Source: Escherichia phage Mimir124. Taken from it: 64,000 nt of DNA. Shown one piece after another: positions 557 through 34,493 of the stretch; positions within the stretch are counted from its first letter, which is position 1; each line of letters starts with the position of its first letter. The notes beneath the pieces were generated by a model. It saw only the letters and a program-made list of their open reading frames with translations. It was not told the DNA's origin and ran no database searches. The stretch is from the sequence record PQ310662.1; one strand, 5' to 3'. A program made the position numbers and the translations under genes.

Positions 557-730
557 ATGTCCCTGACAGGTTGCAAATCAGATAGTCCTCAGGAAGCTTT
601 GGAAAGATTTGAAGAAGCACTGCGTAATAAGATTTATTCAGATACTTACTATCTAGATTCTACTGAACAAGAGAATAAGTATCAGAAAGCTAAGGCTGAA
701 TTACTAATCTGGTTGTCTTACATTCCTTAA
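557..730 (+). CDS. small hypothetical protein (57 aa, below track cutoff)
   Basis: ATG at 557 preceded by AGGAG (545-549); open to TAA at 728-730. Confidence 0.4.
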   Translation: MSLTGCKSDSPQEALERFEEALRNKIYSDTYYLDSTEQENKYQKAKAELLIWLSYIP

Positions 731-735
731 AAACC

Positions 736-752
736 AAGACGCTCCGCGTCTT
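736..752 (+). promoter_or_regulatory. Candidate N4-type virion-RNAP early promoter hairpin (stem AAGACGC/GCGTCTT, loop TCC)
   Basis: 7-bp stem, 3-nt TCC loop, GC-TCC-GC core; upstream of ORF starting at 859. Confidence 0.45.
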
Positions 753-858
753 ACGGATGATGTAAATGCATCCACTAATCATTGAACTTTTATCCCTTTG
801 TTTGGGTGTTCTCACCGACGAGTTCACCCGTAAATCACATAAATCTGGAGAGTACAAA

Positions 859-1239
859 ATGTCTATTCAAAAATTCACTTTCGGTCAATCTAACGCTGCT
901 GCTACCACTGCTAAAGCTGATAAGCCTAAGGCTCAGTTCTGGCTGAACATTGGTTATGTAGCTAATGAAGGCTCTGAAGAAGAGAAGTTCATCTCTCTGC
1001 CTACCGGTATTCCACTGGATACTCAGGAGCCACTGCCTACTAATAGCAGCAATGCTGACTTCCGTGCTATGCGTTGCGCACAGAATGACTTGCTGGAACA
1101 GTTAATCCAATATGCTCAGAACCTGGAACCAGGTGAAGAAGGTATCATTAACCTGCAAGTTCAGCTTCGTCGTGTGAAAGCAGAGGCTGCTGACATCCCA
1201 GCAGACGAGAATAAATATGCTCGTAAACTGACTTTCTAA
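859..1239 (+). CDS. hypothetical early protein (126 aa)
   Basis: Internal ATG at 859 with GGAG 7 nt upstream (MSIQKFTF...); track ORF begins at 766 but lacks an RBS. Confidence 0.5.
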
Positions 1240-1249
1240 TCAACCACTA

Positions 1250-1277
1250 GACTCCCTTCGGGGAGTCTTTTATTTTT
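1250..1277 (+). terminator. rho-independent terminator
   Basis: gactccc-ttcg-gggagtc followed by ttttattttt. Confidence 0.65.
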
Positions 1278-1382
1278 AACTAGACGATAAGCTATTTCTA
1301 CTTTTTGAGTATCTTTAGACGAAGGGTACTGAAACAGTAACTCAATAGATATAGATTTATATTAGATGAAGGAGTAACCATT

Positions 1383-1568
1383 ATGCGTACAGTATGTAAC
1401 CGTTATAACTCGCAGAAGTTGATTGTTACGTTACAACCATGGGGCAGTAAGATGTCACTAAATGCTCGTTGGCAGGTATCTGTAAAAGATGAGAATGGTC
1501 ACTGCTATGACCACTTCTTTGTAGCTAAACCTACTCGTAAACAAATCCGTAAACTTCATAAGGTGTAA
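1383..1568 (+). CDS. hypothetical small protein (61 aa)
   Basis: ORF with GGAG upstream; tightly spaced with the next ORF. Confidence 0.4.
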   Translation: MRTVCNRYNSQKLIVTLQPWGSKMSLNARWQVSVKDENGHCYDHFFVAKPTRKQIRKLHKV

Positions 1569-1572
1569 GACT

Positions 1573-1791
1573 ATGTTGGACTTCATTGCGTTTGTAATAC
1601 TCTGTTATGTGCTATATCGCCTACGTGGTTACATTCTTAATGGAGCCAAGTGGGTAATTACTAAATTGATACTTATCTGTAAGTTACCGGTTGTATTCGT
1701 CAAGTGTCTGTTTGTTTCTCTCGTAGCTAAAGAGGTACGTAAGCAACTATGGGCTAAAGAAGCAGAAGACTATGCTAAGAGGAACCAGTGA
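1573..1791 (+). CDS. hypothetical small membrane protein (72 aa)
   Basis: Hydrophobic N-terminal half (FIAFVILCYVLY...); stop overlaps next small ORF start. Confidence 0.4.
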   Translation: MLDFIAFVILCYVLYRLRGYILNGAKWVITKLILICKLPVVFVKCLFVSLVAKEVRKQLWAKEAEDYAKRNQ

Positions 1792-2216
1792 TGAATTATT
1801 CAGAATTGTGGCTTAAGTTCTATGAAGATTGGCTTGGTGCTGTATCAGGTAGACGCACCGAAGGTGACGTGAACCGGGCAAAGGAATTTGCAGATAAATG
1901 TATAAAGTCACTGAAGGAATCAGATGATGTTCACTGACATAGAATCTGCTATTGAAGAAGCTATGTATCGTATGACCAGTGGTCCTCAGATAAGACACTA
2001 TGGTCTGGTACAGAAAGGTCACCTTATTGCTGTACGTATTGTACGTAACAGTAACCATCAACGTTTTATGTGGACAACTAAATCATGCGTAAATCATTAA
2101 TCATGGGTACCAAAGAAGACGTTCAAAAGATGAAAGAGCGTCTGGCTGCAAAGAAAAAGACATCTGAACCAGTACGTAAGATTGTTACTTTCAATCATCC
2201 ATGTATCAAATAACAA

Positions 2217-2250
2217 GGAGTCCTCCATTAGGAGGGCTTCTATTTTTTAT
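2217..2250 (+). terminator. rho-independent terminator
   Basis: ggagtcctcc-atta-ggagggcttc hairpin followed by tattttttat. Confidence 0.55.
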
Positions 2251-2291
2251 TCTTGAATAGTTAGATATGTATTTAAATAGGAGAAATTATC

Positions 2292-2600
2292 TTGAATGAA
2301 ATTGTTTGTATACTTCCTCATTCAGCTAAGATAGCTGACCGGAATATACGTATTCACCTACCATTCCCATTAAGTAATCCATTCACTCGTAATGAAAGAA
2401 CCACGGTAGAAGATGTAGAGGTAGCTTATGAAGCTTACCTTCGTAATCGTCTTATTGGTGGTGACAAGCTAATTACAGCAGAGATGGAAAGGATTGCATC
2501 CTTTGTAACAGATAGTACAGGTAAACCAGTAGGCTTAATTGGTACTGAATCTGATGTAAATGTTATTCGTAAAATATTACTGGAGGCTTTAAGCCAATGA
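2292..2600 (+). CDS. hypothetical protein (TTG start in track; true start uncertain)
   Basis: Track ORF begins at a TTG codon; stop overlaps the next ORF start. Confidence 0.3.
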   Translation: MNEIVCILPHSAKIADRNIRIHLPFPLSNPFTRNERTTVEDVEVAYEAYLRNRLIGGDKLITAEMERIASFVTDSTGKPVGLIGTESDVNVIRKILLEALSQ

Positions 2601-2818
2601 TGTATTCAACTGATTATGGTGTTTGCCCTATATGTAACAAACGTAAAGGAGTTGCTAATCATAAGAAGTGTAGTCGTATTCTACAGAAACAAAGGAACAA
2701 AGAAGAATGGGATAGGATACTGAATAATCAGTATAAAGAAGAGAAACAACAGATGGCTGTTAAAGCCTCCACTCAACGTATTCGCCGTATTAACTATATA
2801 CAGGGTTATCAGAAATGA
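2597..2818 (+). CDS. hypothetical protein with Cys-pair motif (CPICNKRK...HKKC)
   Basis: 73-aa ORF; 4-bp overlap with neighbours on both sides (translational coupling). Confidence 0.4.
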   Translation: MMYSTDYGVCPICNKRKGVANHKKCSRILQKQRNKEEWDRILNNQYKEEKQQMAVKASTQRIRRINYIQGYQK

Positions 2819-3171
2819 AACTGATTGTGGCTGGTGGAAGAGACTTCGTAAATACCCAAGTAATGATTACAGTATTAATGGATTTAGTGGAGAAGGGTAA
2901 GATTGACCCTAATCCCGAATTGGTATGTGGCATGGCTCGTGGTGCTGATATGCTTGCATACAGCCTATGGGCTAACCACAATATGAAAATCCATACATTC
3001 CCGGCAGATTGGAAAACTCACCCAAGAAGTGCTGGATATATTCGAAATGCAGAAATGGGTAATTTTGCAGATGTACTTGTTGCCTTCTGGGATGGTAAAT
3101 CCAGAGGAACCAAGCACATGATTGATATCATGCAGAGGCTAAATAAACCTGTATACATCGTGAGGTACTAA
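2815..3171 (+). CDS. SLOG/DprA-like Rossmann-fold protein (DUF2493-like)
   Basis: VAGGRDF...GMARGADMLAY resembles the GG.R / G.ARG.D signature of DprA/Smf-YpsA-type SLOG domains; recalled, not searched. Confidence 0.4.
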   Translation: MKLIVAGGRDFVNTQVMITVLMDLVEKGKIDPNPELVCGMARGADMLAYSLWANHNMKIHTFPADWKTHPRSAGYIRNAEMGNFADVLVAFWDGKSRGTKHMIDIMQRLNKPVYIVRY

Positions 3172-3426
3172 ATGATTATTACATATCCTACAGGCAAAAA
3201 TGTGGAATATATGGGTCATACTATCCAAGTACCACATTGGGTTAAGTATATAGCGTTGTATACTCGACAGTATAAGAGTGCTAATACCTCCTTAATAGGA
3301 TTCTCTAAGAAGCCTAAGCTAACAGAAAACAATATCTGGGTATCCTCTGGGAGACAAGAAGAGATTGGTTTCTGTGATTTGAGTATTGTTGATAATAACA
3401 TCTATGGGACATTGAAAAAGGTATGA
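3172..3426 (+). CDS. hypothetical protein
   Basis: 84-aa ORF in a coupled gene array. Confidence 0.35.
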   Translation: MIITYPTGKNVEYMGHTIQVPHWVKYIALYTRQYKSANTSLIGFSKKPKLTENNIWVSSGRQEEIGFCDLSIVDNNIYGTLKKV

Positions 3427-3737
3427 AAACTATTCTAGTAGTTCATGATTCTACATTTACCGATGTAGATAAGATGATGCGTAATATTGATTATGTATCT
3501 CAGACAAGCCAAGCATTCAATGAAGAGTTTACTCTGTACTGTAATGCTGAATCTCCACTGGTTCCTATCCTTAAGGAATCAGGTCTACCTTTCTCTACAG
3601 AGAACTTCCCGGAAGAACCAGACTATGTAATCTCTTTTATCTATGACTTACATGATGGTTCTGAAACCAGTGAATTAGCTATGAACCAGTGGCGTAGTAA
3701 ACGTCCTGTGTTCGCATTTCAGGTATTAAAACCATGA
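3423..3737 (+). CDS. hypothetical protein
   Basis: 104-aa ORF; 4-bp overlaps with neighbours. Confidence 0.4.
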   Translation: MKTILVVHDSTFTDVDKMMRNIDYVSQTSQAFNEEFTLYCNAESPLVPILKESGLPFSTENFPEEPDYVISFIYDLHDGSETSELAMNQWRSKRPVFAFQVLKP

Positions 3738-4114
3738 AGACTATCTCATTAGGTGATGACACCAATGCTTTAATAGGTGTATCTGCACGTCCAATTAGCA
3801 TTGTTAATAAACATCACGGTAAATCCGGTGAGTATATTGGGCGTGGTTCACCATTAGGCAATCCATTCGTCATTGGTAAACATGGAACCAGAGAGCAAGT
3901 AATTGCTAAGTATAAAGTCTGGCTGCAAGAACAGATTGATAAGGGTAATCCAGTTGTATTGGATGAACTTAATCGTCTTGGTAATAAAGCTATTGATGAG
4001 AAAGGATTAGCCTTACAGTGCTTCTGTTATCCGAAGCCATGTCATGGTGAGGTTATTAAAGAGAAGCTAGTGAAAGCTATGTACAAATATTTTGTGGAGA
4101 ATCCTAATGGATAA
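3734..4114 (+). CDS. DUF4326-family protein
   Basis: YIGRGSPLGNPF...GTREQVIAKYKVWL...CFCYPKPCHG matches the DUF4326 signature as I recall it. Confidence 0.5.
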   Translation: MKTISLGDDTNALIGVSARPISIVNKHHGKSGEYIGRGSPLGNPFVIGKHGTREQVIAKYKVWLQEQIDKGNPVVLDELNRLGNKAIDEKGLALQCFCYPKPCHGEVIKEKLVKAMYKYFVENPNG

Positions 4115-4292
4115 GCAATGCAAATGTGGCAAAGGTTATGTATCCCAATGGGATGGTAAATGTGGTCATTGCCGAACCAAGAAAGAACAACGTGACCATG
4201 AATATGCTCTTACTTATTTAGAAGTAACCCGTCAATACAACAATATGACCACACACGATGCTTATATTTATAATAGAGAGGCTTGTAAATGA
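4107..4292 (+). CDS. small Cys4 zinc-ribbon protein
   Basis: MDKQCKCGKGYVSQWDGKCGHCRTKK: two CxC/CxxC pairs; start moved to ATG at 4107. Confidence 0.4.
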   Translation: MDKQCKCGKGYVSQWDGKCGHCRTKKEQRDHEYALTYLEVTRQYNNMTTHDAYIYNREACK

Positions 4293-4639
4293 AAGAAATC
4301 TTAGTATTCACTACCAATTTACTTGGGCAGCATAATAATGCTGCTGCCAAATTAGCATATAAGAAGCATGGTGCTCGCTGGGGTATGGCCTATGGTCATT
4401 ATGGTAATAGCTTTGCCATTCCAGTAAAGGATGGTTATGGTAACCGGATTAAAGAGGGTGCTATCTATGGCTTCATTGAAGGTTTCATTGCCTATGCATC
4501 TTCTAATCCACAATGGGATTTTAAAGTCATGAATAATGACTATCTGGACCCATACCAATTCATTAACGTAACTGGAAATGTACTGTTACCAGAAGTATGG
4601 CGTAAACACTTAGGCGATGCTTACAACTACTGGAGTTAA
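4289..4639 (+). CDS. hypothetical protein (116 aa)
   Basis: ORF with GMAYGHYGNSFAIP motif; family not recognised. Confidence 0.4.
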   Translation: MKEILVFTTNLLGQHNNAAAKLAYKKHGARWGMAYGHYGNSFAIPVKDGYGNRIKEGAIYGFIEGFIAYASSNPQWDFKVMNNDYLDPYQFINVTGNVLLPEVWRKHLGDAYNYWS

Positions 4640-4641
4640 TA

Positions 4642-4902
4642 ATGACTTATGAAGAATTATGGTCTGCTCAAGTCAGAGCCAGAGCACTTACACGGCATGA
4701 CATCTATTGTGCGTTACAAAACGAACTAAAAGGTCGTACTAAGTTAGGCCACATATCAGGTTTTGTTAATATACCTATGCGTAGTCTGGTGTGGCCTTAT
4801 AAAGAAAAAAGTAATGAATTTAACGGTAATGGTTTATATGTACGTATCAACTACCTTGGCCAAGAGAACAACATTCGTATTGCCTTTTGGACTAAGCGTT
4901 AG
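4642..4902 (+). CDS. hypothetical protein (86 aa)
   Basis: ORF immediately after preceding stop. Confidence 0.4.
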   Translation: MTYEELWSAQVRARALTRHDIYCALQNELKGRTKLGHISGFVNIPMRSLVWPYKEKSNEFNGNGLYVRINYLGQENNIRIAFWTKR

Positions 4903-4907
4903 GTAAT

Positions 4908-4922
4908 AGCTGCTCCGCAGCT
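4908..4922 (+). promoter_or_regulatory. Candidate N4-type virion-RNAP early promoter hairpin (stem AGCTGC/GCAGCT, loop TCC)
   Basis: 6-bp stem, TCC loop, followed by TT then AGGAG and ATG at 4937. Confidence 0.45.
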
Positions 4923-4936
4923 TTAGGAGATTAACT

Positions 4937-5191
4937 ATGGATACAACTGCTGTAAGCATTGGGGAGATTGTAAAAAGAAAACATGAATTAAAATGGAGAG
5001 ATTATCATCTATTAAAACATCTTATTCGTATGACTGTTTCAAGTCCTGCTCTCCAATATTCAGAAGTAAGTGAAATAGGGGCAAGATTATCGATGTTTAC
5101 CCATAGAGAGGTCGTATCAAAGAGTATATTTATAAGCTGCTACTTCGATAAAAGTATTGGCAAATATGAATTCAATTGTTTTATTGAATAA
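4937..5191 (+). CDS. hypothetical early protein (84 aa)
   Basis: ORF with AGGAG RBS directly downstream of hairpin at 4908. Confidence 0.45.
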   Translation: MDTTAVSIGEIVKRKHELKWRDYHLLKHLIRMTVSSPALQYSEVSEIGARLSMFTHREVVSKSIFISCYFDKSIGKYEFNCFIE

Positions 5192-5214
5192 ACTAATTTA
5201 TTAGGAGATATGCG

Positions 5215-6030
5215 ATGTACTCATCAATAGAACATCAGAAGCAACTCGAAGTACTATTCAATAAAAATCAATTACTGCCTCGCATGAGGAAGGAATTCGA
5301 GGACTCCAAAGAAATTGACTTTAAGGCATTCGCTGCCTATTTAGAAATAGATTATAAGCTGCTCATTGATGCAATGGTGCAGATTGCCCTACATAAACGT
5401 GCTGATATCCAGACTATGATTGGCTCTCTCATGAGCCACTCAGATGATGCTCAGTACATCGCTGACTGTCTGTATAAGATGGCAGAGAATGACTGCTTCA
5501 ACTATGACCCTACTATAGACAAGTTCGGTGTTATCTATGAGATTAGTGAAGATGTTCAGATGGAACTGGAAGCATTCCAGTATCCATTGCCTATCGTAAG
5601 TGCTCCTAATCCTGTTAGAACTAACCGGGATACCGGTTATTACCAGACTAAAGGAAGCATTATCCTCAAGAAGAACCATCATGAGATGGACGTCTGCCTT
5701 GACCACATCAACCGTATGAACAATCAACGTCTCTGTATTAACTGGGACGTTGCCAACTATGTAAAAGACTCCCGTCCTAACATGGATAAACCCAAAGATG
5801 GTGAAACCCGTCAGGACTATGAGAAACGAGTTAAAGCCTTTGAGAAGTACAGTCGTACTGCTAAGGAAGTAATGGAGTTAGTGACTCAGGAAGGTAATAA
5901 CTTCTCACTAGCGCATCGTTACGACAAACGAGGCCGCACGTACTGTGCTGGATACCATATATCCTACCAAGGCACTTCATATAACAAAGCTGTCATTGAA
6001 TTTGCCGATAAAGAACTAGTAGAGGACTAA
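5215..6030 (+). CDS. T7-like single-subunit RNA polymerase, N-terminal subunit (N4 RNAP II small-subunit-like)
   Basis: RYDKRGRTYCAGYHISYQG resembles the T7 RNAP D.RGR.Y region; 271 aa; followed by the second RNAP part at 6555. Confidence 0.7.
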   Translation: MYSSIEHQKQLEVLFNKNQLLPRMRKEFEDSKEIDFKAFAAYLEIDYKLLIDAMVQIALHKRADIQTMIGSLMSHSDDAQYIADCLYKMAENDCFNYDPTIDKFGVIYEISEDVQMELEAFQYPLPIVSAPNPVRTNRDTGYYQTKGSIILKKNHHEMDVCLDHINRMNNQRLCINWDVANYVKDSRPNMDKPKDGETRQDYEKRVKAFEKYSRTAKEVMELVTQEGNNFSLAHRYDKRGRTYCAGYHISYQGTSYNKAVIEFADKELVED

Positions 6031-6536
6031 TGAAACCAACTCAAGCAGAGTTGATGGAACTACTCGACTATGACCCAGTGAATGGAACATTTCATTGGAC
6101 TCATAGTCCATTGGTGTACATCAACGTAAGAGGTAAGGAGACTGGCCTAACAGGCTCCAGAGGACATCGCAAGATTGTCATTAATAAGCAAGATTACAAA
6201 GCTCACCATGTGGCTTGGTGCATAATGACTGGCGTATGGCCTGAACAAGTTGACCACAATGATACGAACCGAGCTAATAATCGCTGGGATAATCTACGTG
6301 AGGCAACCCACACACAGAACATGCGCAATAGAACCATGAGCAAGAATAACACTTCTGGATTTAAGGGTGTTCGTATGCGTAATGGTAAGTATCTGGCGCA
6401 GATACAGGTTAATGGCTCTAAAGTAGAATTAGGATCATTTAGTGACCCTGTAGAAGCCGCTAAAGCCTATGATGCCGCTGCAATCAAATACTTTGGTGAG
6501 TTCGCCAAAACAAATAAAGAACTTAACAACTACTAA
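6030..6536 (+). CDS. HNH homing endonuclease with AP2-like DNA-binding domain
   Basis: VDHNDTNRANNRWDNLREATHTQN (HNH) plus SGFKGV...AAKAYDAAAIKYFGEFA (AP2-like); ATG overlaps the stop of the preceding RNAP subunit. Confidence 0.75.
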   Translation: MKPTQAELMELLDYDPVNGTFHWTHSPLVYINVRGKETGLTGSRGHRKIVINKQDYKAHHVAWCIMTGVWPEQVDHNDTNRANNRWDNLREATHTQNMRNRTMSKNNTSGFKGVRMRNGKYLAQIQVNGSKVELGSFSDPVEAAKAYDAAAIKYFGEFAKTNKELNNY

Positions 6537-6554
6537 TCCACTAATGCGAGCCAA

Positions 6555-7799
6555 ATGGCTCAAGACGCTAAGGAATATAGAATGCAACTGTTAACTGCCC
6601 GTGAATACCTGAAAGTAGATATCGCTAATAACTATGGCTTAGATAAGAAGACATGGGATGAACGTATTAGCTGGTTCGATGAGAACGAAACTAACCTGCT
6701 CAATCTGGTAGATGAAGCAGAAGAATCTGCACTGTTCTATGCTGGTGTAAATGCATGGAATGATATGAAAGCAGGTAAGCCTATCGGGTATGCTGTAGCT
6801 CTGGATGCTACATCATCTGGCTTGCAATTACTGGCCTGCCTGACTGGTGACCGCTCTGCTGCTGAACTGTGTAACGTAGTTAACTACATGGGAGAGAATG
6901 GTAAGCCATTACGTCGTGATGCTTATACAGTCATCTATCACAAGATGCTGGACATCCTTGGTGAAGCATCTCGTATTAAACGTAGTGACACTAAGCAGGC
7001 TGTTATGACTGCATTCTACGGTTCTGAAGCCAAACCTAAAGAAGTATTCGGTGAGGGTATTCGTCTCAAGACTTTTGAGAATGTAATGGAAACTGTTGCT
7101 AGTGGTCCTTGGGCACTTAACAAGTTCTTACTGCAATGTGGTAACCCGGATGCCAACCGTTACGTATGGATACTGCCTGACAACTTCCACGCTGTCATTA
7201 AGGTAATGGTTCCTGAAGTACAGACTGTTAACTTCTTAGGTAAGCCATTCGACATCACTCGTATGGTTCAGGGTACTGAAGAAAAGACTCGTATGCTCTC
7301 TGCTAACATCACCCACTCTATTGATGGGATGGTGGTACGTGAGATGCTGCGTCGTTGTAACTTCGACCGTGACTTAGTGGAAGCTGTGCGAGAACTCTGT
7401 GATGAAGGTCCATCAGAATATGGGGAAATTGCAGGTAACCTGGAGAAAGTACAAGAGCTATGGAGCCATTATGAGAAATCTGGCTTCTTATCTTTATCTA
7501 TCCTGGATTATCTTGACCCATGTACTATTGCTTATGTAGACCGTCAGGTAGTGGCAGATATGATTGACACTTTGCCTAAGAAACCTTTCCCTGTAATGAC
7601 TGTGCATGACTGCTTCCGTTGCCATCCTAACTACGGTAATGACCTGCGTCGTCAATACAACCAGATTCTGTCTGACATTGCTAAGAGCGACCTATTGGGA
7701 TTCATCTTGTCTCAGGTACTGGGTCAAGAGTTCTCTGCTGGTAAGCTGGATGACAGCCTCTGGCAGGACATTCTTGAAACAGACTATGCATTAAGTTAA
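6555..7799 (+). CDS. T7-like RNA polymerase, catalytic subunit (N4 RNAP II large-subunit-like)
   Basis: [25 protein letters not shown] parallels T7 [29 protein letters not shown] motif-C-like; 414 aa. Confidence 0.75.
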   Translation: [414 protein letters not shown]

Positions 7800-7806
7800 T
7801 AAACTA

Positions 7807-7841: not shown

Positions 7842-7843
7842 CT

Positions 7844-16292: not shown

Positions 16293-16503
16293 TGTAAATA
16301 TCGCCTCAGAGAAAACGTATAGCATTCAGATCAATGGCTTAACAGAATAACAAGTCTTATTCCTAATGAATGCTTTTCAAAACAGTCCATTGGGTCACCA
16401 CCCCAATGATGAACCGCTGGAAGAAGCTGAACTACGTAAAGCTATTTTTGATAAGTGTAAACAAGTACTACTTTAAGCAACATTTAAACTGGAGAATAAA
16501 TAA

Positions 16504-19075: not shown

Positions 19076-21124
19076 ATGAAAATCGAACTGATTTCTATCA
19101 TCGCACTGGCAGTTGACAGTCGAAACCTCACACTGTGGAAGCCAGATGGCTCCACGGTTGTATATCCACAAAGCGACCCACGGGTTGCTCGTATTGTATC
19201 TGAAGCACAGACTAAAGGTCTTGGCACTACCCAGGACCAAATAGAAGTAAACATTGCACCAGAAGTAGAACTTCGTACTGAATATCTGGAAGCAGAGAAG
19301 AACACCAACGGATTCGTCCGTTTCTTCAAGGTAGCTAAGGCTAAGCTAAAAGAGTTCTTCGAGGATGGTACAAGTGTTCAACCAGCCCGTATCATTTCAG
19401 ATATTAAACTGGGTAATCCTACAAAGACTCTGGTGTCTAAAGCTATGGATACCTTCCTGGCTGGCCAGGCAAATGAACCAGAAGTAACGGTGGCAGATGG
19501 TTGTTACGACAAACGTGACAATCTGATGTGGGTTACTGGTTGGGATAAGGACCATAACCATCTTGCACTGGTTCGTTTTATTAATGACGTACTGGGTTGG
19601 GGTTATGACCATACTAATCGCATCCTTGCACGGGAATGGCCTATTGGAATCCGTGCAGTATCCGATGATGAAATGGGTGAGTTTGCTAAACAAGCCAAGC
19701 ACATCAAAGGAGTACACATTGTATTCACCAGCCGTAAACATACCCCACCACCTTACATTGAAGTAGCTAAAACTACGAACCAGGATAAGCTGGCTGCTGC
19801 TTCTGAGAAGTTAGCTGCATTGGGTGCTATTAGTACCGATGACGCTAACTTCCACACTGAAGTGAAAGAAGATGAAGTGGTTGTTGCTGTTACCAACAAT
19901 GGGGTTATCCCTGGAGTTGAGAACCTGCAACGTCACCTACGCCAATCTGCCAAACTGAAAGACTATAAGGGCTTTACTAAGTTCCTTGAGCGTCTGGCTC
20001 CGGTTATTAAAGACCGTTTGCACTCAGTGGAAGACTTGATGAAGTTCATGGAAACTGCTGAACTGCCTATCGCTGATGATGGCTCTATCCTGTTCCTGAA
20101 ACGCCTTAAGTTCCGGGGTACAGAAGACGGTAAACGTGTATTCGTTGACTGTCACTCAGGTAACATCCGTCAGTGGGTAGGCTGTAAAGTACAGGTACGA
20201 GAAGACCTGGTAGACCCTGACCGTCGTCAGGACTGCTCTAATGGCCTACACGTAGCATCCATGAGCTATATCCGTAGCTTCGGTGGTAACGTAACTATCC
20301 TTGGTAAAGTAGCACCGGAAGATGTATTTGCTGTTCCTCAGTACAGCACCAATAAGATGCGTGTATCTGCATATCATATTATTGCTGAACTGCCGGAAGA
20401 AGAACGTAATAACGTTAACAATGGTATCTACCTGTCTAAGACAGAAGTAGGTAAAAAGTTGCTTAATGATGCCATCGTTGGGAACCATAGTTCACCTACC
20501 ACTCTTATTATGGTTGGTGGACATCGTGGTACTAACCTCAAATACACTAATCTTACATCTGGTTCTGTAGAACAATTCCGTACAGTTGCTAGTAAAGAAG
20601 CACTGAACATGGAAGAGTCACTGAATGAAGCCGTAGCTGCTGAACCAGTGAAGGCTACTGACCTTAAACCTGTTATTAAGAAGGCTCCTACTGTGAAAGA
20701 ACAAATCCAGGAACTGGTCAAAGAGTTCCTTAATGCAACAACCCCGGAAGATAAGTTAGCTGCTGCTGACCTTCTGGTAGAACTGCGTTCCAAAGCCAGA
20801 AAGCCTTGGGGTGCATTCGACGTAGGTAGTGATGTAGTAGACGCTATTGCTACTATCCGTAGTACTCGTATTCCTGCACCTAAAGCTGTTAAGCAGGATA
20901 AGACAGTTAAACCTACACGTTCTGCTGCTGCCACTAAAGTAGCTCCGTCTGGTAAACACGCTGATAATCTGCGTAGCATCCTGAACGATACGACGTACTC
21001 CGACTATCAGAAAGGCCATGCTCTGCAAGACTATAAGCGTCATGCTAAGAAGTCATTCACTGCAATGGGTCTGACTGAAGAAGAAGCTAAGTTAGCTACC
21101 AAGCTGGTTAAGGCTGCTAAGTAA
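19076..21124 (+). CDS. rIIB-like protein (assigned by position after rIIA-like)
   Basis: 682-aa ORF immediately after the rIIA-like gene; no diagnostic motif recognised. Confidence 0.3.
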   Translation: MKIELISIIALAVDSRNLTLWKPDGSTVVYPQSDPRVARIVSEAQTKGLGTTQDQIEVNIAPEVELRTEYLEAEKNTNGFVRFFKVAKAKLKEFFEDGTSVQPARIISDIKLGNPTKTLVSKAMDTFLAGQANEPEVTVADGCYDKRDNLMWVTGWDKDHNHLALVRFINDVLGWGYDHTNRILAREWPIGIRAVSDDEMGEFAKQAKHIKGVHIVFTSRKHTPPPYIEVAKTTNQDKLAAASEKLAALGAISTDDANFHTEVKEDEVVVAVTNNGVIPGVENLQRHLRQSAKLKDYKGFTKFLERLAPVIKDRLHSVEDLMKFMETAELPIADDGSILFLKRLKFRGTEDGKRVFVDCHSGNIRQWVGCKVQVREDLVDPDRRQDCSNGLHVASMSYIRSFGGNVTILGKVAPEDVFAVPQYSTNKMRVSAYHIIAELPEEERNNVNNGIYLSKTEVGKKLLNDAIVGNHSSPTTLIMVGGHRGTNLKYTNLTSGSVEQFRTVASKEALNMEESLNEAVAAEPVKATDLKPVIKKAPTVKEQIQELVKEFLNATTPEDKLAAADLLVELRSKARKPWGAFDVGSDVVDAIATIRSTRIPAPKAVKQDKTVKPTRSAAATKVAPSGKHADNLRSILNDTTYSDYQKGHALQDYKRHAKKSFTAMGLTEEEAKLATKLVKAAK

Positions 21125-21303
21125 TGGTTAGCATTGATAAGGTGGATATACGGGAAGTAATCACACCCCTAAAGCAAACCGTTATAAGGATTTGTGTAAA
21201 GTACAACGGACACTTTGGTCAATTCTTTGAAGGCTTGTCTCTAGAAGATGCGATGAAAGAGTTCGGAGAATGGTATAAGAACCAGTCCTAGCCTGTTCAA
21301 AAG

Positions 21304-21334
21304 CCCTCACTTGTAATAAAGTGAGGGTAATTTT
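21304..21334 (+). terminator. probable terminator
   Basis: ccctcactt-gtaata-aagtgaggg hairpin followed by taatttt. Confidence 0.45.
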
Positions 21335-21350
21335 GAGGAGGAAATAAGCT

Positions 21351-21707
21351 ATGTCTAAAGTATTCAGAAGTAATCGCAAAGCAACTGATGAAGACATCAT
21401 TCGCATGAATGCTGTTGGTCTGTCCCTCGCAACTATCGCTAAGACGTTGGGGGTTCACCCCACTACGGTTACACTTCGGCTACGTTCTTTGAATATAGAA
21501 CCTGCGGATACAAGAAGAACCTTTATGGAAAATGTTCTAACTCCACTACCTACACCTATGATTGATTGGTTAGCTGAACAGCTCGGCCCTAAATATGAAA
21601 TTAGGCAGTTTGTAAGGGATTTGCTGATAGATGCCTATAAGAATAGACAAGCAACAGACCTCCCTGCACACATCCGTTACTTACGGGCATATGGGGGGGA
21701 AGAATAA
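21351..21707 (+). CDS. putative HTH DNA-binding protein
   Basis: LSLATIAKTLGVHPTTVTLRL resembles a helix-turn-helix. Confidence 0.4.
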   Translation: MSKVFRSNRKATDEDIIRMNAVGLSLATIAKTLGVHPTTVTLRLRSLNIEPADTRRTFMENVLTPLPTPMIDWLAEQLGPKYEIRQFVRDLLIDAYKNRQATDLPAHIRYLRAYGGEE

Positions 21708-24544: not shown

Positions 24545-24553
24545 GGTAAAGCT

Positions 24554-27908: not shown

Positions 27909-27979
27909 TGAAAATAACCAACAACCATGATGTCTCACTGGCCCTGGCTGTATGGCTATTGCATGACGAGTAACTAATT

Positions 27980-28477
27980 ATGAAACAGAGGATTGCCCAT
28001 GACAGGCTTTTACAGCTTGTTAGTTATGACCCTATTTCCGGGATTTTTACTCGTAGGAATACCGGAAAGGTATCCGGTTACCTAATGAAGAGTGGCTACA
28101 TTCAACTTCGTGTGGATAGCGTGTTGTACTATGGGCATATCCTTGCATGGTTTTATGTGCACGGTGTATGGCCTACGGATAGGATTGACCATAAGGACAA
28201 TATACGCCATCACAACTGGATAGATAACCTCAGAGAAGCGACCCACAAGCAGAATAACCAGAGTGCTGTTTTATCTAAAACAAACACATCTGGGTTTAAG
28301 GGTGTCTCCTTTTCAAAGAGTATGGGTAAGTACAGAGCAACTATTTGGGTTAATAGCAAACCAATTACATTAGGTTACACAGATAACCCAATAGAGGCTG
28401 CTGTTCTCTACGATGAAGCTGCTGTAACTCATTATGGTGAGTTTGCCAAAACCAACAAACAATTAGGACTGTTATGA
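27980..28477 (+). CDS. HNH homing endonuclease with AP2-like domain
   Basis: IDHKDNIRHHNWIDNLREATHKQN plus SGFKGV...YGEFAKTNKQL; close paralog of 6030 ORF. Confidence 0.7.
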   Translation: MKQRIAHDRLLQLVSYDPISGIFTRRNTGKVSGYLMKSGYIQLRVDSVLYYGHILAWFYVHGVWPTDRIDHKDNIRHHNWIDNLREATHKQNNQSAVLSKTNTSGFKGVSFSKSMGKYRATIWVNSKPITLGYTDNPIEAAVLYDEAAVTHYGEFAKTNKQLGLL

Positions 28478-29454
28478 AACTTACTAACAATCATGATGTT
28501 AGTCTTGCACTAGCTGTTTGGCTTGTTACAGATGATTATGATTACGTAGACAATCCTAAGTACCTGTCTGCTACTACATTGCTTAAACCTATTAAGCAAA
28601 TCGTCATGAAGCATCGTGTAGATTTTAGTGACCAGTCAATTGATGTTATGGATTTCGTATCCACATCAATGGGTACTGGCTTACATGACTCTATAGAGAA
28701 AGCCTGGAAGCTAGGTCATAAGACTGCATTGAAGAAGTTGGGTTACCCTCAACGAGTAATTGATGCAGTAGTCATTAACCCAACCAAAGCAGACTTTGCT
28801 ACTAATCCTGACCTTATCCCAATCTACATTGAACAACGTGGAACCAAGCAGGTTAAGGGATGGACTATTGGTGGTAAATTCGACATCGTAACAGAAGGTC
28901 TGTTACAAGACTTCAAGTCTACCTCAACCTATTCTTGGGTTGCTGGTTCCCGTGATGATGAACACAAGATGCAAGGCAGCTTGTACCGTTGGATTCACAA
29001 CGACATCATTACTGAGGATGTAATTCGTATTAACTACATCTTCACTGACTTCATGAAACACATGGCTAACAGCAATCCGAACTATCCTGCTAATCGTATT
29101 ATGCATAAGGATATACCGTTGCTGTCTGTCGAGAAGACTGAGCGTTGGGTGGAAGAGAAGATTCACTTAATCGAAAAGTACTGGGATGCACCTGAAGAGG
29201 AAATCCCTGAATGTACTGACGAGGAGTTGTGGCGAACAGAGCCACAGTTCAAATACTTCTCTGATGCTTCTAAGGTAGATGTACCTGGAGCCAGAAGTAC
29301 CAAAAACTTTGACGATATGGCATCTGCCCGTATCTTCATGGCTGAAAAGGGTGGCAAGGGTGCTATCAAGGTCGTGGAGGGACAGGTTAAAAGATGTCTT
29401 TACTGCCCTGTCGCTTCTATTTGCAAACAAAGAGAGAGATATTTTCCATCATGA
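28474..29454 (+). CDS. PD-(D/E)XK-family nuclease (RecB/Cas4-like, putative)
   Basis: GKFDIVTEGLLQDFKSTSTY (D..E.K-like core) and C-terminal CLYCPVASIC cysteine cluster. Confidence 0.4.
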   Translation: MKLTNNHDVSLALAVWLVTDDYDYVDNPKYLSATTLLKPIKQIVMKHRVDFSDQSIDVMDFVSTSMGTGLHDSIEKAWKLGHKTALKKLGYPQRVIDAVVINPTKADFATNPDLIPIYIEQRGTKQVKGWTIGGKFDIVTEGLLQDFKSTSTYSWVAGSRDDEHKMQGSLYRWIHNDIITEDVIRINYIFTDFMKHMANSNPNYPANRIMHKDIPLLSVEKTERWVEEKIHLIEKYWDAPEEEIPECTDEELWRTEPQFKYFSDASKVDVPGARSTKNFDDMASARIFMAEKGGKGAIKVVEGQVKRCLYCPVASICKQRERYFPS

Positions 29455-31604
29455 GTATTGACCTTACCGGAGTAGTGCACCATCCAGCGATTGAAGAAAT
29501 CGTAGATGTGCTCTGCAATAAAACCCAGAATAATGACCGGGGATTCTTCCGTGTCGAAGTAGCCTACTTCTTGGCTAAAATGGCATCCTGCATGGGTGCA
29601 ACCATCGTAACTAAAGACCGTGGTGACCTGCCGGTAAACATCTACGCTATGGCGTTGGCTACATCTGGTTTCGGTAAAGGTCACTCGGTAAATATTATTG
29701 AAGACGGGTTCATGACTGGATTCCGTAAGCGATTTATGGAAGACACCATGCCCGTCATTGCAAATGACCGATTATGGAAGATTGCTAACGAACGTGCTGC
29801 TCGTCAGGGTACGGACCAGAATGATGAGTTCGACAAAGTTGAAGCAGAGTATAAACGTGCTGGGGCATTCCCATTCACGTTCGACTCTGGTACAGCACCT
29901 GCTGTAAAACAACTTCGACACAAGCTGCTTATGGCTGGTTGCGGTGCTATTAACTTACAGATTGATGAGATTGGTTCCAACCTCATTGCCAACGTTGAAG
30001 TACTTAACCTGTTCCTTGAGTTGTATGACCAGGGGAAAGTAAAACAGAAGTTAACCAAGAACACTGCTGAAAGTATTCGTGGCGAAGAACTGGATGGTAA
30101 GACTCCTGCTAACCTGCTGCTGTTCGGTACTCCGAGTAAGCTGCTGGATGGTGGTCAGACTGAAGACCAGTTCTATGACTTCCTTGATACAGGGTATGCA
30201 CGTCGTTGTCTGTTTGCCATTGGGCATTTAGACAAGCGAGCACATGCAACGATGACCCCGGAAGAAATCTACCGTAACCTGATTAAGCAGGATAACGTTC
30301 AGTCTCTTGGTAAGTGGGCTAACCACTTCCATAGTCTGGCTGACCCAAACCTGTTTGGCTTTAAGATGATTGTGGAAGATGCAGTGGGTATTGCTCTGAT
30401 TACTTACAAAATTGATTGTGAGAAAAAAGCAGAAGCTATGGCTGACCACGAAGAAATTCGTAAGGCTGAAATATCCCACCGTTACTTCAAGGCTCTTAAG
30501 CTGGCAGGTGCACTGGCGTTTGTTGATCAGAGTTCATTCATTGAGATGTCTCACCTTAAACAAGCAATCTTGCTCGTAGAAGAATCTGGGGCAGCATTCC
30601 AGGGTATTCTCAATCGTGAGAAAGCCTATGTGAAGCTGGCTAAGTACATTGCCTCCGTAGGCAAAGAGGTTACTCATGCTGACTTGCTGGAGTCATTACC
30701 TTTCTATAAGAGTGGCAATGCGGCTCGTAATGAGATGATGACTCTTGCTACAGCATGGGGTTACAAACAGCACATCATTATTAAGAAGACCTTCAATGAG
30801 GGTATTGAGTTCTTCCGTGGTGAGACTCTGAAAGAGACTGACACCAATGAGATGATAGTGGCATATAGTGATAGCTTTGCTTATGACTATGTTGGTGAAC
30901 GTGTACCGTTTGACCAGCTACATGTATTAACCCAAGCTCCCGGTATGCACTGGGTGAACCATCATATGAAGAATGGACATCGTTCTGAAGAGAACGTTAT
31001 CCCAGGATTTAACATGATTGTTATTGACTGTGATGGTGGAGTACCACTGCATACGTGCCATGAACTGATGAAGGAATATAAGTTCATGACCTATACCACT
31101 AAGCGTCATACCGACGAAGAGAACCGCTTCCGTCTGATTATTCCAATGAACTATGAGCTACACCTCGACACTGAGGAATACAAAGAGTTCATGAATAACG
31201 TTATGGCTTGGCTACCATTCGAAACGGATGAGTCTGCTAACCAACGAGCCAAGAAGTGGATGTCCTGTGAGACTGGTTCCTATCATTACAACCTTGATGC
31301 GAATCTGTTGGATGTACGTGACTTTATTCCTCGTACCAGTAAGAACGAGCAGTTCCAGAACCAGATGAAGGAAGTACAGTCGCTGGACAATCTGGAGCGT
31401 TGGTTCGCTGGTCGTATTGCCTCCGGTAATCGTAATAATCAAATGATTAAGTACGCACTGGCATTAGTAGACAGTGGTTGGGACTTTGCTCAAGTACAGC
31501 AAGCCGTCTATTCATTCAATAAGAAACTGGCTAATCCATTGCCAGATGATGAATTGAATTCAACCGTAATGGTCACCGTGGCTAAACGCTTCGCTGGCAA
31601 GTAA
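29451..31604 (+). CDS. putative DNA primase/replication initiation protein
   Basis: MIVIDCDGG (hhhDhD) ... TKRH ... RFRLII resemble archaeo-eukaryotic primase motifs; 717 aa from ATG 29451 (track start 29394). Confidence 0.4.
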   Translation: MSIDLTGVVHHPAIEEIVDVLCNKTQNNDRGFFRVEVAYFLAKMASCMGATIVTKDRGDLPVNIYAMALATSGFGKGHSVNIIEDGFMTGFRKRFMEDTMPVIANDRLWKIANERAARQGTDQNDEFDKVEAEYKRAGAFPFTFDSGTAPAVKQLRHKLLMAGCGAINLQIDEIGSNLIANVEVLNLFLELYDQGKVKQKLTKNTAESIRGEELDGKTPANLLLFGTPSKLLDGGQTEDQFYDFLDTGYARRCLFAIGHLDKRAHATMTPEEIYRNLIKQDNVQSLGKWANHFHSLADPNLFGFKMIVEDAVGIALITYKIDCEKKAEAMADHEEIRKAEISHRYFKALKLAGALAFVDQSSFIEMSHLKQAILLVEESGAAFQGILNREKAYVKLAKYIASVGKEVTHADLLESLPFYKSGNAARNEMMTLATAWGYKQHIIIKKTFNEGIEFFRGETLKETDTNEMIVAYSDSFAYDYVGERVPFDQLHVLTQAPGMHWVNHHMKNGHRSEENVIPGFNMIVIDCDGGVPLHTCHELMKEYKFMTYTTKRHTDEENRFRLIIPMNYELHLDTEEYKEFMNNVMAWLPFETDESANQRAKKWMSCETGSYHYNLDANLLDVRDFIPRTSKNEQFQNQMKEVQSLDNLERWFAGRIASGNRNNQMIKYALALVDSGWDFAQVQQAVYSFNKKLANPLPDDELNSTVMVTVAKRFAGK

Positions 31605-31660
31605 GAAAACAGGAGTCTTTCTTTGGTTTGAAGGACTCCTAAACTAAACGAGGAAAAATA

Positions 31661-32413
31661 ATGTCCGAAGAAATCTCCAATGATATGAACACTCAGCTAA
31701 TCCTGATTGCAGGATTCTCAGCGAGTGGTAAATCAGCATCACTGCGTAATATCCGGAACCAGGAACGCTGGTTGTATCTGAATACAGAAGCAGGTAAGCG
31801 TCTACCTTTCCGTAATAAGTTCAACACCTACAACATTGAAGACCCATATCAGATTTGGGAAGCATTTGATGTTGCATCTCCAGGGGGTGAAATGGCAGAC
31901 GATGTTGATGGTATCATTATCGACTCTGCCACCTTCATGATGGACATGCTGGAATCCCAGTATGTATTGCCATCTGCTAATACCCAGAAAGCCTGGGGGG
32001 ACTTTGCACAGTTCTTTAAAATACTGCTGCAACAGAAAGTCGTTAAGTTTGGTAAGCCAGTAATCATTACTGCCCATGCTAAAGATGAACTCGACGAAGC
32101 TGCTGGTGTGATGAAAACATTCATCCCAGTGAAAGGCTCCCTGAAGAATAATGGCCTTGAGGCTTACTTCTCTACAGTGGTTTACGCAGAACGCGTAGAT
32201 ATTAAGGAACTGGAGAAGTATGGCAACAAGATGCTTGATATTACGGAAGAAGAACGTGACTTAGGCTATAAGCACGTATTCCAGACACGTCCAACCAAGA
32301 AGTCTGTTGGTAAACGTCTTCGCTCACCGATGGGTATGTTCGATAAGTCTCAGACTTACATTGATAATGATGCCCAGAAACTCTTAGACCATCTGGCTGA
32401 ATACTACGCTTAA
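31661..32413 (+). CDS. RecA-fold ATPase (Sak4-like, putative recombination/replication)
   Basis: Walker A GFSASGKS, Walker B IIIDSAT; 250 aa. Confidence 0.5.
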   Translation: MSEEISNDMNTQLILIAGFSASGKSASLRNIRNQERWLYLNTEAGKRLPFRNKFNTYNIEDPYQIWEAFDVASPGGEMADDVDGIIIDSATFMMDMLESQYVLPSANTQKAWGDFAQFFKILLQQKVVKFGKPVIITAHAKDELDEAAGVMKTFIPVKGSLKNNGLEAYFSTVVYAERVDIKELEKYGNKMLDITEEERDLGYKHVFQTRPTKKSVGKRLRSPMGMFDKSQTYIDNDAQKLLDHLAEYYA

Positions 32414-32453
32414 GCGTTTGCCTGGTTGTTAATCACTTATTAGGAAAAATATT

Positions 32454-33257
32454 ATGTCACTGTTCGGTAACTTGAAAGAAAAGACCAAAAACGTTGAAGC
32501 TGCAAAAGACACTCTTGGTGGTGGTGGCTTCGGTGCAAAAGAATCTGATATCTACACCGGTACTGTAAAAGTAGCTTACGTAGGTAAAGCTGATTCTGGT
32601 GCAGACTGGATGCAGTTAATCATTGAAAACCTGAAAGGTTCTGATGGCAATGATGCTGGTGAGTTCCGTGCCCAGGTATACTTCACTTCCGGTAATGCTA
32701 AAGGCAATAAGCCGACTTACGAGAAGAATGGTAAAGAGTACTTCCTGCCTGGTTACACTGTCATTAATGACATGATGCTGATGGCTACTGGTTGTGAACT
32801 GCCAGATGCAGACTTCGAAGAGAAGATTGTTAAAGTCTATGACTTCGACCTGAAAGCAGAAACCAATAAGTCTGTCATGGTTCCAGTTGATCTGGTGGGC
32901 CAGACTGTTACCTTCGCTCTGGAAAAGGTTCTGGAAGCTAAGCAGGTTAAGGGTGATAACGGTTACGTTGACTCCGGAGAAACTCGCGAAGTAAACGAGA
33001 TTCAGAAAGTGTTTCACCCGGAACTGCTGGTTACAGTCGTCGAGGCTCAGGAAGCAGAGAAGGCTGAGAAAGAACTGACCCCAGAACTGGCTGTATTCTA
33101 TACAGCATGGTTGGAAAAGAACAAAGGTAAAACCCGTGATAAGACCAAGGGTTCTGCTGGTGGTAATGGTAAAGGTGGCTTACCTCCTAAACCAGGTGCA
33201 GGTGCTGGCACAGGTACTACTCCTGCTGGGGGTAAATCTCTGTTCGGTAAGCGTTAA
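32454..33257 (+). CDS. single-stranded DNA-binding protein (N4 SSB-like by size/position)
   Basis: 267 aa with Gly-rich C-terminal tail (GSAGGNGKGGLPPKPGAGAGTG); position between ATPase and resolvase. Confidence 0.5.
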   Translation: MSLFGNLKEKTKNVEAAKDTLGGGGFGAKESDIYTGTVKVAYVGKADSGADWMQLIIENLKGSDGNDAGEFRAQVYFTSGNAKGNKPTYEKNGKEYFLPGYTVINDMMLMATGCELPDADFEEKIVKVYDFDLKAETNKSVMVPVDLVGQTVTFALEKVLEAKQVKGDNGYVDSGETREVNEIQKVFHPELLVTVVEAQEAEKAEKELTPELAVFYTAWLEKNKGKTRDKTKGSAGGNGKGGLPPKPGAGAGTGTTPAGGKSLFGKR

Positions 33258-33811
33258 TGAAAATCCCAATTGTCGGTGCAGATATTAGTCTCCGCAATTG
33301 GGGATTAGCTCGTGGGATGCTGGACATTGAGTCCGGTGTCTTCGAGCAGGTCGAACTTAAACTGGTTCAAACTGAAGTTGACCACAACAAACAAGTTCGA
33401 ACCAACTCCAAAGATATACAAGCTGCCCATGATTTGTTTCTTGGTTGCAAAGAATGGTTACGGTCTGCTAAAGCAGTGTTTGTAGAAGTACCAGTAGGCT
33501 CTCAGTCTGCTAACGGTATGAAGTCCTATGGTGTATGCGTAGGATTAATCGGTGCATTCCGTGCATTGGGTTGCCCAATCTTTGAAGTATCCCCAATTGA
33601 AAACAAACTTGCACTGGTCGGTGATAAAACTGCATCCAAAGACACGATGATTCGTGCTGCTCATGCCATCTATCCCGAAGCCAACTGGCTCACGGATAAG
33701 AAAGGTAAACTCCTGAATAAGAATGAGCACTTAGCTGATGCAATCGGTGCAATCCACGCTGGGGTAAATCTACCAGCTTTCCAGAATCTCATTAAATTAA
33801 TAAAGGCATAA
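33257..33811 (+). CDS. RuvC-like Holliday junction resolvase
   Basis: VGADISLRNWGLA (G.D.S.r..G.A) and C-terminal HLADAIGAIHAG resemble RuvC motifs. Confidence 0.55.
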   Translation: MKIPIVGADISLRNWGLARGMLDIESGVFEQVELKLVQTEVDHNKQVRTNSKDIQAAHDLFLGCKEWLRSAKAVFVEVPVGSQSANGMKSYGVCVGLIGAFRALGCPIFEVSPIENKLALVGDKTASKDTMIRAAHAIYPEANWLTDKKGKLLNKNEHLADAIGAIHAGVNLPAFQNLIKLIKA

Positions 33812-33812
33812 T

Positions 33813-34262
33813 ATGCAAATCGTTCTGAACCAGTCTGAAGTAGAAGCTGCTATTGAAGCTTATGTAAATGAACAAGTTAATCTTGCCGGGGACATTAATA
33901 TCCTGGTGAATGCAGATGGTACTGCCACTATTGGTATCAATGAAGAGGTCGGTCATAGTGATGACACTCCCCCCGTGGTAGAGAAGAAGACTCGCCGTCC
34001 TCGTAAGAACCCACAAGAAGCCAAACACCGTCCGGTAGAACCGGAACCGGTTGTTGAGGATGAAGCTGAAGAAGAGGTAAAGGAAGAAGAAACCCAGACC
34101 TCTACTGGTGGACCGAACGGGAGTTCTACGCCGGAACCTGAAGAAGCAGTAGCTGAACCAGAAGCACAAGAAGAAGTTGTGCAGGAGGAAGTTAAGGCAG
34201 AAGAACCAGCAGAGAAACCTGCTGCGAAGCCTTCACTGTTCGCTGGCCTAAAACGTAGTTAA
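33813..34262 (+). CDS. acidic low-complexity protein (149 aa)
   Basis: E/P-rich C-terminal half (EPEPVVEDEAEEEVKEEE...). Confidence 0.45.
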   Translation: MQIVLNQSEVEAAIEAYVNEQVNLAGDINILVNADGTATIGINEEVGHSDDTPPVVEKKTRRPRKNPQEAKHRPVEPEPVVEDEAEEEVKEEETQTSTGGPNGSSTPEPEEAVAEPEAQEEVVQEEVKAEEPAEKPAAKPSLFAGLKRS

Positions 34263-34493
34263 TCTGGTAGGTGGCTCAGAAGCTGCTGCTAGGTGTGGTA
34301 GTGTTTATAGTCCTGATGCTACTACTGGTCAGAATTATAGACGTGTCGGCTCCATACATAGCTTTTATCATCACTGTCATTATCCTGTGGAAATGCAGTG
34401 GTAAACACGGTGGTGACAAGCCGCCAGAATAACAACAACCGAACCAGTGGATTGGAATACTCTCCCCAGTCCATTGGTTCAACCGGGGTTAAT

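Follow-up and report, generated by a model that had tools for sequence, protein, structure and literature searches.

Six small open reading frames in the left part of a Gamaleyavirus genome

The DNA analysed here, called the window throughout, is a stretch of 64,000 nucleotides from Escherichia phage Mimir124 (PQ310662.1) that corresponds to the left ~64 kb of the genome, with position 1 near the left genome end. Megablast assigned the window to the genus Gamaleyavirus (G7C-like, N4-related podophages; Schitoviridae, Enquatrovirinae), with ~90-93% identity to known genomes across most of its length. As judged from the GC skew and the annotation of relatives, the coding strand switches from + to - at ~38 kb. 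A preliminary description of this DNA had reported six in-frame small open reading frames (ORFs) at places where a track restricted to ORFs of at least 60 amino acids displays only antisense frames. All six were found on the + strand and are named O1 to O6 below, t1 to t3 being terminators and P1 to P3 hairpin promoters. The only ORFs of at least 60 amino acids at these places are indeed three antisense ones, and all coordinates are collected in Table 1.

Evidence that the six ORFs are protein-coding

An ORF of such size proves nothing by itself, since 154 spurious ORFs of 38-70 amino acids, in wrong or antisense frames, are found within the long genes of the window; these 154 served as the background for chance ORFs. 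For comparison, the corresponding regions were taken from 14 GenBank relatives, N4, Moo19 and Jgk1 among them, and from metagenomic and IMG/VR loci, the ratio of non-synonymous to synonymous change (dN/dS, omega) being calculated by the pooled Nei-Gojobori method for all six frames. Codon usage was evaluated by a log-odds score trained on the 25 longest genes of the window.

The sense frame was intact in every relative carrying the DNA, and it was the sole frame open in all variants. Its omega amounted to 0.43 for O1, 0.38 for O2, 0.41 for O3, 0.42 for O4, 0.19 for O5 and 0.29 for O6, in each case the lowest value among the six frames. The two shifted sense frames gave omega values of about 0.9-5.5. 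One antisense frame came near the sense value (0.31-0.69), as is expected because third codon positions coincide in these two frames. The other frames contained stops in most or all variants, and the length differences among homologues were all in-frame. The codon score was best of six in the stated frame for each ORF, and for O1-O4 it fell within the top 0-2% of the 154 spurious ORFs (top 0.6% for O1). Conservation and codon usage set the six ORFs apart from the spurious background. Given the intact sense frames, the low dN/dS, the in-frame insertions and deletions (indels) and the broken antisense ORFs, we judge the six to be protein-coding, and we consider it highly probable that they are bona fide sense-strand small genes of this N4-like phage. 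Frame conservation and dN/dS, which the preliminary description had named as a check, thus revealed conserved sense frames and purifying selection for all six, and bore out its proposal that real genes fill the apparent gaps in the track.

Several observations weigh against this interpretation. The codon usage of O5 and O6 is atypical, 16% and 4% of the spurious ORFs scoring equally high; O1, O2 and O5 are each represented by only 4-7 distinct variants; the O6 locus has a second frame, on the antisense strand, that stays open in the majority of variants (omega 0.49); and neither O4 nor O6 has a recognisable Shine-Dalgarno (SD) sequence. In addition, no promoter hairpin of the virion RNA polymerase (vRNAP) lies directly upstream of O1 or of the operon containing O2-O4, and the temporal class of these ORFs thus has to be deduced.

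We therefore weighed what else the conserved frames could represent. In the case of O6, and possibly O5, what is conserved could act at the level of DNA or RNA (as a terminator, promoter, replication signal or small RNA, for instance), with no protein made from it. The O6 DNA is near-identical among close relatives, with 1-2 substitutions, it adjoins a largely non-coding, tRNA-bearing stretch, and gene callers rarely pick it. Diverged phages, however, vary at O6 mostly at third codon positions (21, 9 and 33 variable sites at positions 1, 2 and 3, respectively), the amino-acid changes are conservative swaps among I, V and L, indels of +3 and +6 nucleotides preserve the frame, no Rfam family matches at O6, and a pattern of two hydrophobic segments is kept from N4 to Klebsiella phage KP8, all of which makes a non-coding element very improbable. 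It is even harder to regard the six as chance open frames in non-coding spacers or leaders, devoid of any product. Although short ORFs are abundant, O4 and O6 are without an SD sequence and the codon scores of O5 and O6 are mediocre, relatives invariably keep the sense frame open whereas stops break the other frames, the sense-frame omega of 0.19-0.43 compares with ~1 or more for the two shifted sense frames, indels are in-frame, PHROG profile matches are strong, and O3 has homologues in unrelated siphophages. Finally, a reversal of roles, in which the three antisense ORFs of the track would be the true genes, with only shadows of them on the sense strand, deserves next to no credence: the antisense ORFs are longer (68-82 amino acids), and the third, which faces O6, stays open in the majority of variants at the omega given above, but the first of them carries stops in St11Ph5 and NAN33P5, the second a stop in NAN33P5 and the third stops in Moo19 and Jgk1, their starts vary and their lengths range from 47 to 70 amino acids, their omega always exceeds that of the sense frame, and the neighbouring genes up to ~38 kb are all on the + strand.

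Coordinates and translation starts

The coordinates first assigned to O1 and O3 were exact, while O2 (1792..1938) and O5 (21123..21290) had been placed one base off. The end of O4, given as 2211, was two bases short and implied a length that is not a multiple of 3, the true end being 2213; the limits of O6, given as 34273/34315..34431, are corrected in Table 1. Ribosome-binding sites or start-stop overlaps had been claimed for all six ORFs. We found SD sequences for O1-O3 and overlaps for O2-O5, but O6 has no canonical SD and is separated from the preceding gene by a gap of 9 nucleotides. The O1 start is preceded at 7 nucleotides by AGGAG (545-549). O2 has GAGG 8 nucleotides upstream and a TGATG stop-start overlap with an ORF of 72 amino acids (1573..1791), and O3 has AAGGA 6 nucleotides upstream and overlaps O2 by 14 nucleotides. 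O4, devoid of an SD sequence, overlaps O3 by 16 nucleotides. No well-spaced SD precedes O5, whose start overlaps the rIIB stop by one base (TAATG), and the GTG of O6 lies 9 nucleotides past the stop of the gp47 homologue, immediately 3' of an in-frame TAG. O1-O3 would thus be translated from their own SD sequences. The starts of O2, O4, O5 and O6 lie at or a few nucleotides from the upstream stop, and translation of these four is therefore most likely coupled to that of the preceding gene.

Table 1. Positions of the small ORFs (stop codons included), opposing ORFs and transcription signals in the window
Feature	Coordinates	Strand	Remarks
O1	557..730	+	57 amino acids; ATG
O2	1791..1937	+	48 amino acids; ATG; a GTG at 1788 would make 49 amino acids
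O3	1924..2100	+	58 amino acids; ATG
O4	2085..2213	+	42 amino acids
O5	21124..21291	+	55 amino acids
O6	34271 (GTG)..34432	+	53 amino acids; internal ATG at 34316 would make 38 amino acids
Antisense ORF	1813..2061	-	82 amino acids
Antisense ORF	21182..21406	-	74 amino acids
Antisense ORF	34276..34482	-	68 amino acids
vRNAP promoter hairpin P1	87..101	+	ACATGC-TCC-GCATGT; upstream of gp1 homologue; like N4 P2 (N4 position 562)
vRNAP promoter hairpin P2	736..752	+	AAGACGC-TCC-GCGTCTT; upstream of gp2 homologue (859..1239); O1 ends just before
vRNAP promoter hairpin P3	4908..4922	+	AGCTGC-TCC-GCAGCT; ahead of RNAPII subunit genes; N4 equivalent at 4551, before gp15
Terminator t1	476..503	+	AGGAGACTC-TTCG-GAGTCTCCT followed by GTTTTG; between gp1 and O1
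Terminator t2	1249..1268	+	after gp2
Terminator t3	2216..2241	+	immediately after O4; annotated terminator in SP5M
Stem-loop, terminator-like	21304..21335	+	CCCTCACTT-GTAATA-AAGTGAGGG followed by TAATTTTG; closes the rIIA-rIIB(-O5) unit

O3 and O4 belong to conserved families of phage proteins

The six ORFs fall into two evolutionary classes, O3, O4 and O6 being core genes and O1, O2 and O5 accessory cassettes present in few relatives. They are not new, as nearly all of them have been entered as 'hypothetical proteins' for related phages. Annotated orthologues exist for O2-O5 in G7C, St11Ph5 (gp07, gp08 and gp09), IME11 and N4, and for O1 and O6 in a few records.

O3 can be assigned as the orthologue of G7C gp2.4 and as a member of phrog_5407, which it matches over its whole length (E=5.5e-26). 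The family comprises 251 phage records, mostly from unrelated siphophages of the Kagunavirus/K1G type, and an alignment of 12 sequences defined a common core, RHYG.VQ...VRIVR...FMW.TK. O3 was intact in 11/11 distinct variants. The allele in the window is of the St11Ph5/IME11 type and only ~52-57% identical to the G7C type; here the ORF starts with an ATG behind O2, whereas the G7C type starts with a GTG right behind the upstream gene. The AlphaFold 2 (AF2) model of O3, compact and confident, consists of a helix and a three-stranded sheet (predicted local distance difference test, pLDDT, 82.9), and Foldseek returned no significant fold neighbour for it in the PDB (none with E<0.09).

O4 is likewise assigned as the orthologue of N4 gp6 (YP_950484.1) and G7C gp6, in phrog_7648, with a profile match over residues 1-42 (E=5.7e-23) and 64% identity to N4 gp6 (tblastn, E=8e-12). 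Its homologues number 85 phage records, N4 among them, and the frame was open in 14/14 variants. The two ends are invariant (MRKS[LI][IL]MG...IVTFNH), and the middle is rich in indels, all in-frame. N4 gp6 has the same ends, MRKSLIMGT.EDV and IVTFNHP, and is encoded near the end of the second early-region operon, but O4 is 10 residues shorter owing to a deletion in the variable middle, and N4 gp6 possesses the SD sequence that O4 lacks. The position before a terminator and the gp9 homologue is kept in G7C, St11Ph5, SP5M, Bp4, ECBP1 and N4.

O1, O2 and O5 are accessory cassettes

Between terminator t1 and the early promoter P2 is a slot occupied by a variable gene, of which O1 is the short form. 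Homologues of O1 were confined to 5 phage records, at 48-58% identity, the match to phrog_24403 was weak, and frame +0 was the only one open in 5/5 variants. IME11_77 is 58% identical to O1, a divergent short form. Other relatives encode in this slot a protein of 95-112 amino acids of which the C-terminal module alone resembles O1, and it is this module only that O1 shares with the longer SP5M gp02, St11Ph5 gp02 and 24-32N Gp2. Between t1 and O1 (506-544) we also observed a conserved block, ATTAGATAGATAGTCAAAAGTAGATAACTATCTACTTT, with a perfect 10-bp palindrome (523-532/535-544) abutting the O1 SD sequence; the 3' half of the block, AACTATCTACTTT, also occurs in N4, immediately upstream of P2.

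O2 likewise has only 5 phage records, and its annotated counterpart, St11Ph5 gp07, is 94% identical to it; frame +0 was the only frame open in 4/4 variants. The cassette is bracketed by the near-repeat AGGAAYCAGWTGATG, its junctions being near-identical 15-nucleotide repeats (1779-1793 and 1912-1926). O2 is absent from IME11, G7C and others, in which O3 starts with GTG right behind the upstream 72-amino-acid gene.

O5, a lineage-specific gene, occurs in 7 phage records and in six clusters at 90% identity, and is annotated as IME11_35 (YP_006990640.1), which is 100% identical and has the same TAATG junction with rIIB. In metagenomic contigs it always follows rIIB immediately. Compared with phages that do not carry it, O5 is a seamless insertion of 165 nucleotides inside the TAATAG following rIIB (junctions 21121-21126/21289-21291). 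The C-terminal 29 residues are near-invariant, with 3 single-sequence substitutions despite 12 variable nucleotide sites. The AF2 model of O5, likewise compact and confident, shows three strands and a C-terminal helix (pLDDT 87.4), and a Foldseek search of the PDB gave no fold match (none with E<0.09). The terminator-like stem-loop downstream has counterparts annotated as stem_loop in G7C and as terminator in SP5M.

O6 is a hydrophobic protein encoded directly after gp47

The O6 protein comprises two hydrophobic segments, at ~residues 5-20 and 27-40, followed by a charged tail (KCSGKHGGDKPPE) at the C-terminus. In all 84 matching records of Enquatrovirinae type, from Gamaleyavirus, Klebsiella KP8-like phages, Moo19 and N4, it directly follows the gp47 homologue. 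In 30/30 loci, representing 16 distinct sequences, the ORF was unbroken and began with a GTG at the earliest possible position, and the other frames had omega values of 0.49-5.5. It matches phrog_19025 (E=5.4e-9) and, weakly, phrog_15123, a 'membrane protein' family (E=1.4e-3).

The preliminary description had offered an internal ATG as the alternative start of O6, and some records call only the resulting form of 38 amino acids. Conservation does not back this form: N4 has Ile in place of the internal Met, and a comparison of the window with N4 reveals that, per site, synonymous changes outnumber non-synonymous ones in codons 2-15. The internal ATG is therefore ruled out and the GTG is the start of O6, represented in N4 by ATG-GTG. 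The N4 homologue (NC_008720.1, 32132/32135..32299), of 55 amino acids from the ATG or 54 from the GTG, is located between gp47 and the tRNA cluster and is unannotated. Indeed, most of the 84 records, including RefSeq N4 and G7C, hold no feature at the match, and no counterpart is annotated in St11Ph5, IME11, SP5M and most others. One annotated counterpart is E20_55 (WAQ79337.1), identical to O6 with a Met at the GTG and with the same synteny. Relatives of O6 made up only 2 of 5.8e9 protein clusters, and an exhaustive HMMER search of 1.84e9 representatives retrieved one truncated form of 38 amino acids and one spurious membrane protein. Gene callers evidently miss O6, probably because of its GTG start, absent SD, shortness and atypical codon usage. 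Its systematic omission from annotations, N4 included, is mildly notable.

O6 is flanked by the gp47 homologue on one side and the gp47.2 homologue/tRNA region on the other, at the end of the replication module and on the strand of early and middle genes. As read from its sequence, it resembles in size and shape the class II holins, which have two transmembrane domains and a charged C-terminus, and other small phage membrane proteins. Unlike such holins, however, it is not encoded beside an endolysin or spanin gene in a lysis cassette, and no sequence similarity to characterised holins was detected; we thus speak of a resemblance only. Our guess is that O6 could be a two-pass protein of the cytoplasmic membrane, made by reinitiation after gp47 and with both termini inside the cell, and that it modulates exclusion, the timing of lysis or another step of infection linked to the membrane. 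A more far-reaching proposal, which we regard as doubtful, is that N4 and its enterobacterial relatives would, without exception, encode in O6 a microprotein that passes the inner membrane twice, is translationally coupled and has been systematically missed by reference annotations and gene callers, with a core membrane-linked role not described before in, for instance, the delayed lysis of N4, superinfection exclusion or replication anchoring.

Downstream of O6 we noted a further gene below 60 amino acids (34494..34664, 56 amino acids), identical to G7C gp47.2 at 54/56 residues and hidden inside a GTG-extended ORF of 88 amino acids. It is followed by 1.5 kb without convincing ORFs (~34665-36200), containing a single tRNA-Ile (anticodon AAT, 35862-35936). 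The matching stretch carries 1-5 tRNAs in the relatives, and that of N4 carries four at 32.45-33.13 kb (Asn, Ser, Thr and Pro), all missing from the RefSeq feature table.

Promoters, terminators and predicted expression class

Early promoters were identified following the definition and architecture established for N4 (PMC4496689). The 64 kb contain just three copies of the heptamer GCTCCGC, all on the + strand and each within a hairpin of 6-7 bp with a TCC loop (P1 to P3). O1 lies between t1 and P2. Downstream of t2, an operon (1383..2213) comprises an ORF of 61 amino acids, the 72-amino-acid ORF, O2, O3 and O4, and O2-O4 are enclosed by t2 and t3. The t1 site is annotated as a terminator in SP5M and is conserved in the relatives and in N4. 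An early gene of the N4 type is preceded by a GCTCCGC hairpin with no terminator between the two; in the window, t1 parts P1 from O1 and t2 parts P2 from O2-O4. Both O5 and O6 map a long way from the early region.

Past its first 500 bp, the DNA is said to be pulled into the cell by vRNAP transcription (PMC4496689), and read-through of terminators has been documented for the N4-like phage LUZ7 (PMC9163698). The weak U-tract of t1 suggests that partial read-through may take place there. From the vRNAP-driven entry of DNA and this weak U-tract, we infer that O1-O4, in the early region that is injected first, are probably expressed from P1 and P2 by read-through of weak terminators; the alternative would be their middle expression. 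O5 and O6, given their position, would belong to middle operons of the replication module transcribed by RNA polymerase II (RNAPII).

A candidate middle-promoter motif, the AT-rich TAGATA found after t1, t2 and t3, was rejected, as it occurs 24 times on the + strand and 26 times on the - strand across the window. Sigma-70 promoters were predicted 7 times in the early region, against 20.9 in shuffled sequences, and no host-type promoter was found for these ORFs.

Two further observations concern the early promoters and the first gene. Extra copies of the GCTCCGC promoter precede added small genes (e.g. gp1.2) in G7C, St11Ph5, SP5M, NAN33P5 and Jgk1, which indicates that promoter-plus-gene cassettes are mobile. 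The gp1 homologue of the window (144..468) is similar to N4 gp1, a protein implicated in middle transcription, and has 87 amino acids here instead of the 107 found in all relatives. The difference results from one extra T at ~401-403 (GATTTCTGAG compared with GATTCTGAG), which reflects either a sequencing error in a homopolymer or a genuine truncation of the C-terminus.

Possible functions of the small proteins

Sequence searches against Pfam, NCBIfam and the PDB gave no match for the ORFs, and the PHROG matches were to families of 'unknown function'. For O3 and O5, the two ORFs modelled, Foldseek against the PDB suggested no function; hits to Cpn0803, the enolase N-domain and others were set aside as a generic likeness among small alpha/beta folds. 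A word-indexed search for remote homologues retrieved only near-identical proteins for O3, O5 and O6, and a literature search yielded no paper that addresses what N4 gp6 does or that profiles the small proteins of N4-like phages.

The preliminary description had pictured the six as early-region micro-proteins, frequent as host-takeover factors in phages. This location holds for O1-O4, which are in the left-end early region, and fails for O5, which follows rIIB, and O6, which follows gp47, both in the middle or replication module. Small size and a variable, accessory character are typical of host-takeover factors, and O1 and O2 display both. O1-O4 are situated within the left 2.2 kb, which is injected first and encodes the early proteins in N4 (PMC4496689), and O4 is the orthologue of the early-region protein N4 gp6. 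On the other hand, besides the position of O5 and O6 and the lack of a vRNAP hairpin directly before O1 or O2-O4, no similarity of the ORFs to characterised host inhibitors was found in the PHROG, Pfam, NCBIfam and PDB searches. We thus regard early expression and takeover of host functions by the six proteins as possible but somewhat unlikely. For O1-O4, a guess would be that they are small binders of host or phage proteins acting early, and we would only tentatively suggest that at least one of these four is directed at the host.

Other observations on the window and its relatives

An ORF of 36 amino acids just before rIIA (16366..16476) is conserved in 6/15 relatives and is unrelated to G7C gp32.1. 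An apparent gap of 916 nucleotides at 28.5-29.4 kb was examined as well and proved to be the exonuclease gene. Among the records compared, the feature table of OY979416.1 (Klebsiella phage vB_Kpl_K57alpha1.2) is out of register with its sequence, the stretch that matches the early region of the window being labelled primase, Sak4, SSB, RuvC, etc.

Significance of the six small genes

Small hypothetical genes are to be expected in the early regions of phages, and in this respect the result is routine. For the annotation of this genome, it means that six gaps are coding, with corrected coordinates and start codons, and it illustrates that a 60-amino-acid cutoff, and even standard gene callers, fail at such genes. 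O2, with its junction repeats, and O5, set inside TAATAG, provide a nucleotide-level view of the swapping of small genes at gene junctions in virulent phages. Finally, O6, which 84 sequenced phages carry, the model phage N4 among them, offers N4 geneticists a concrete new gene at the position given above.

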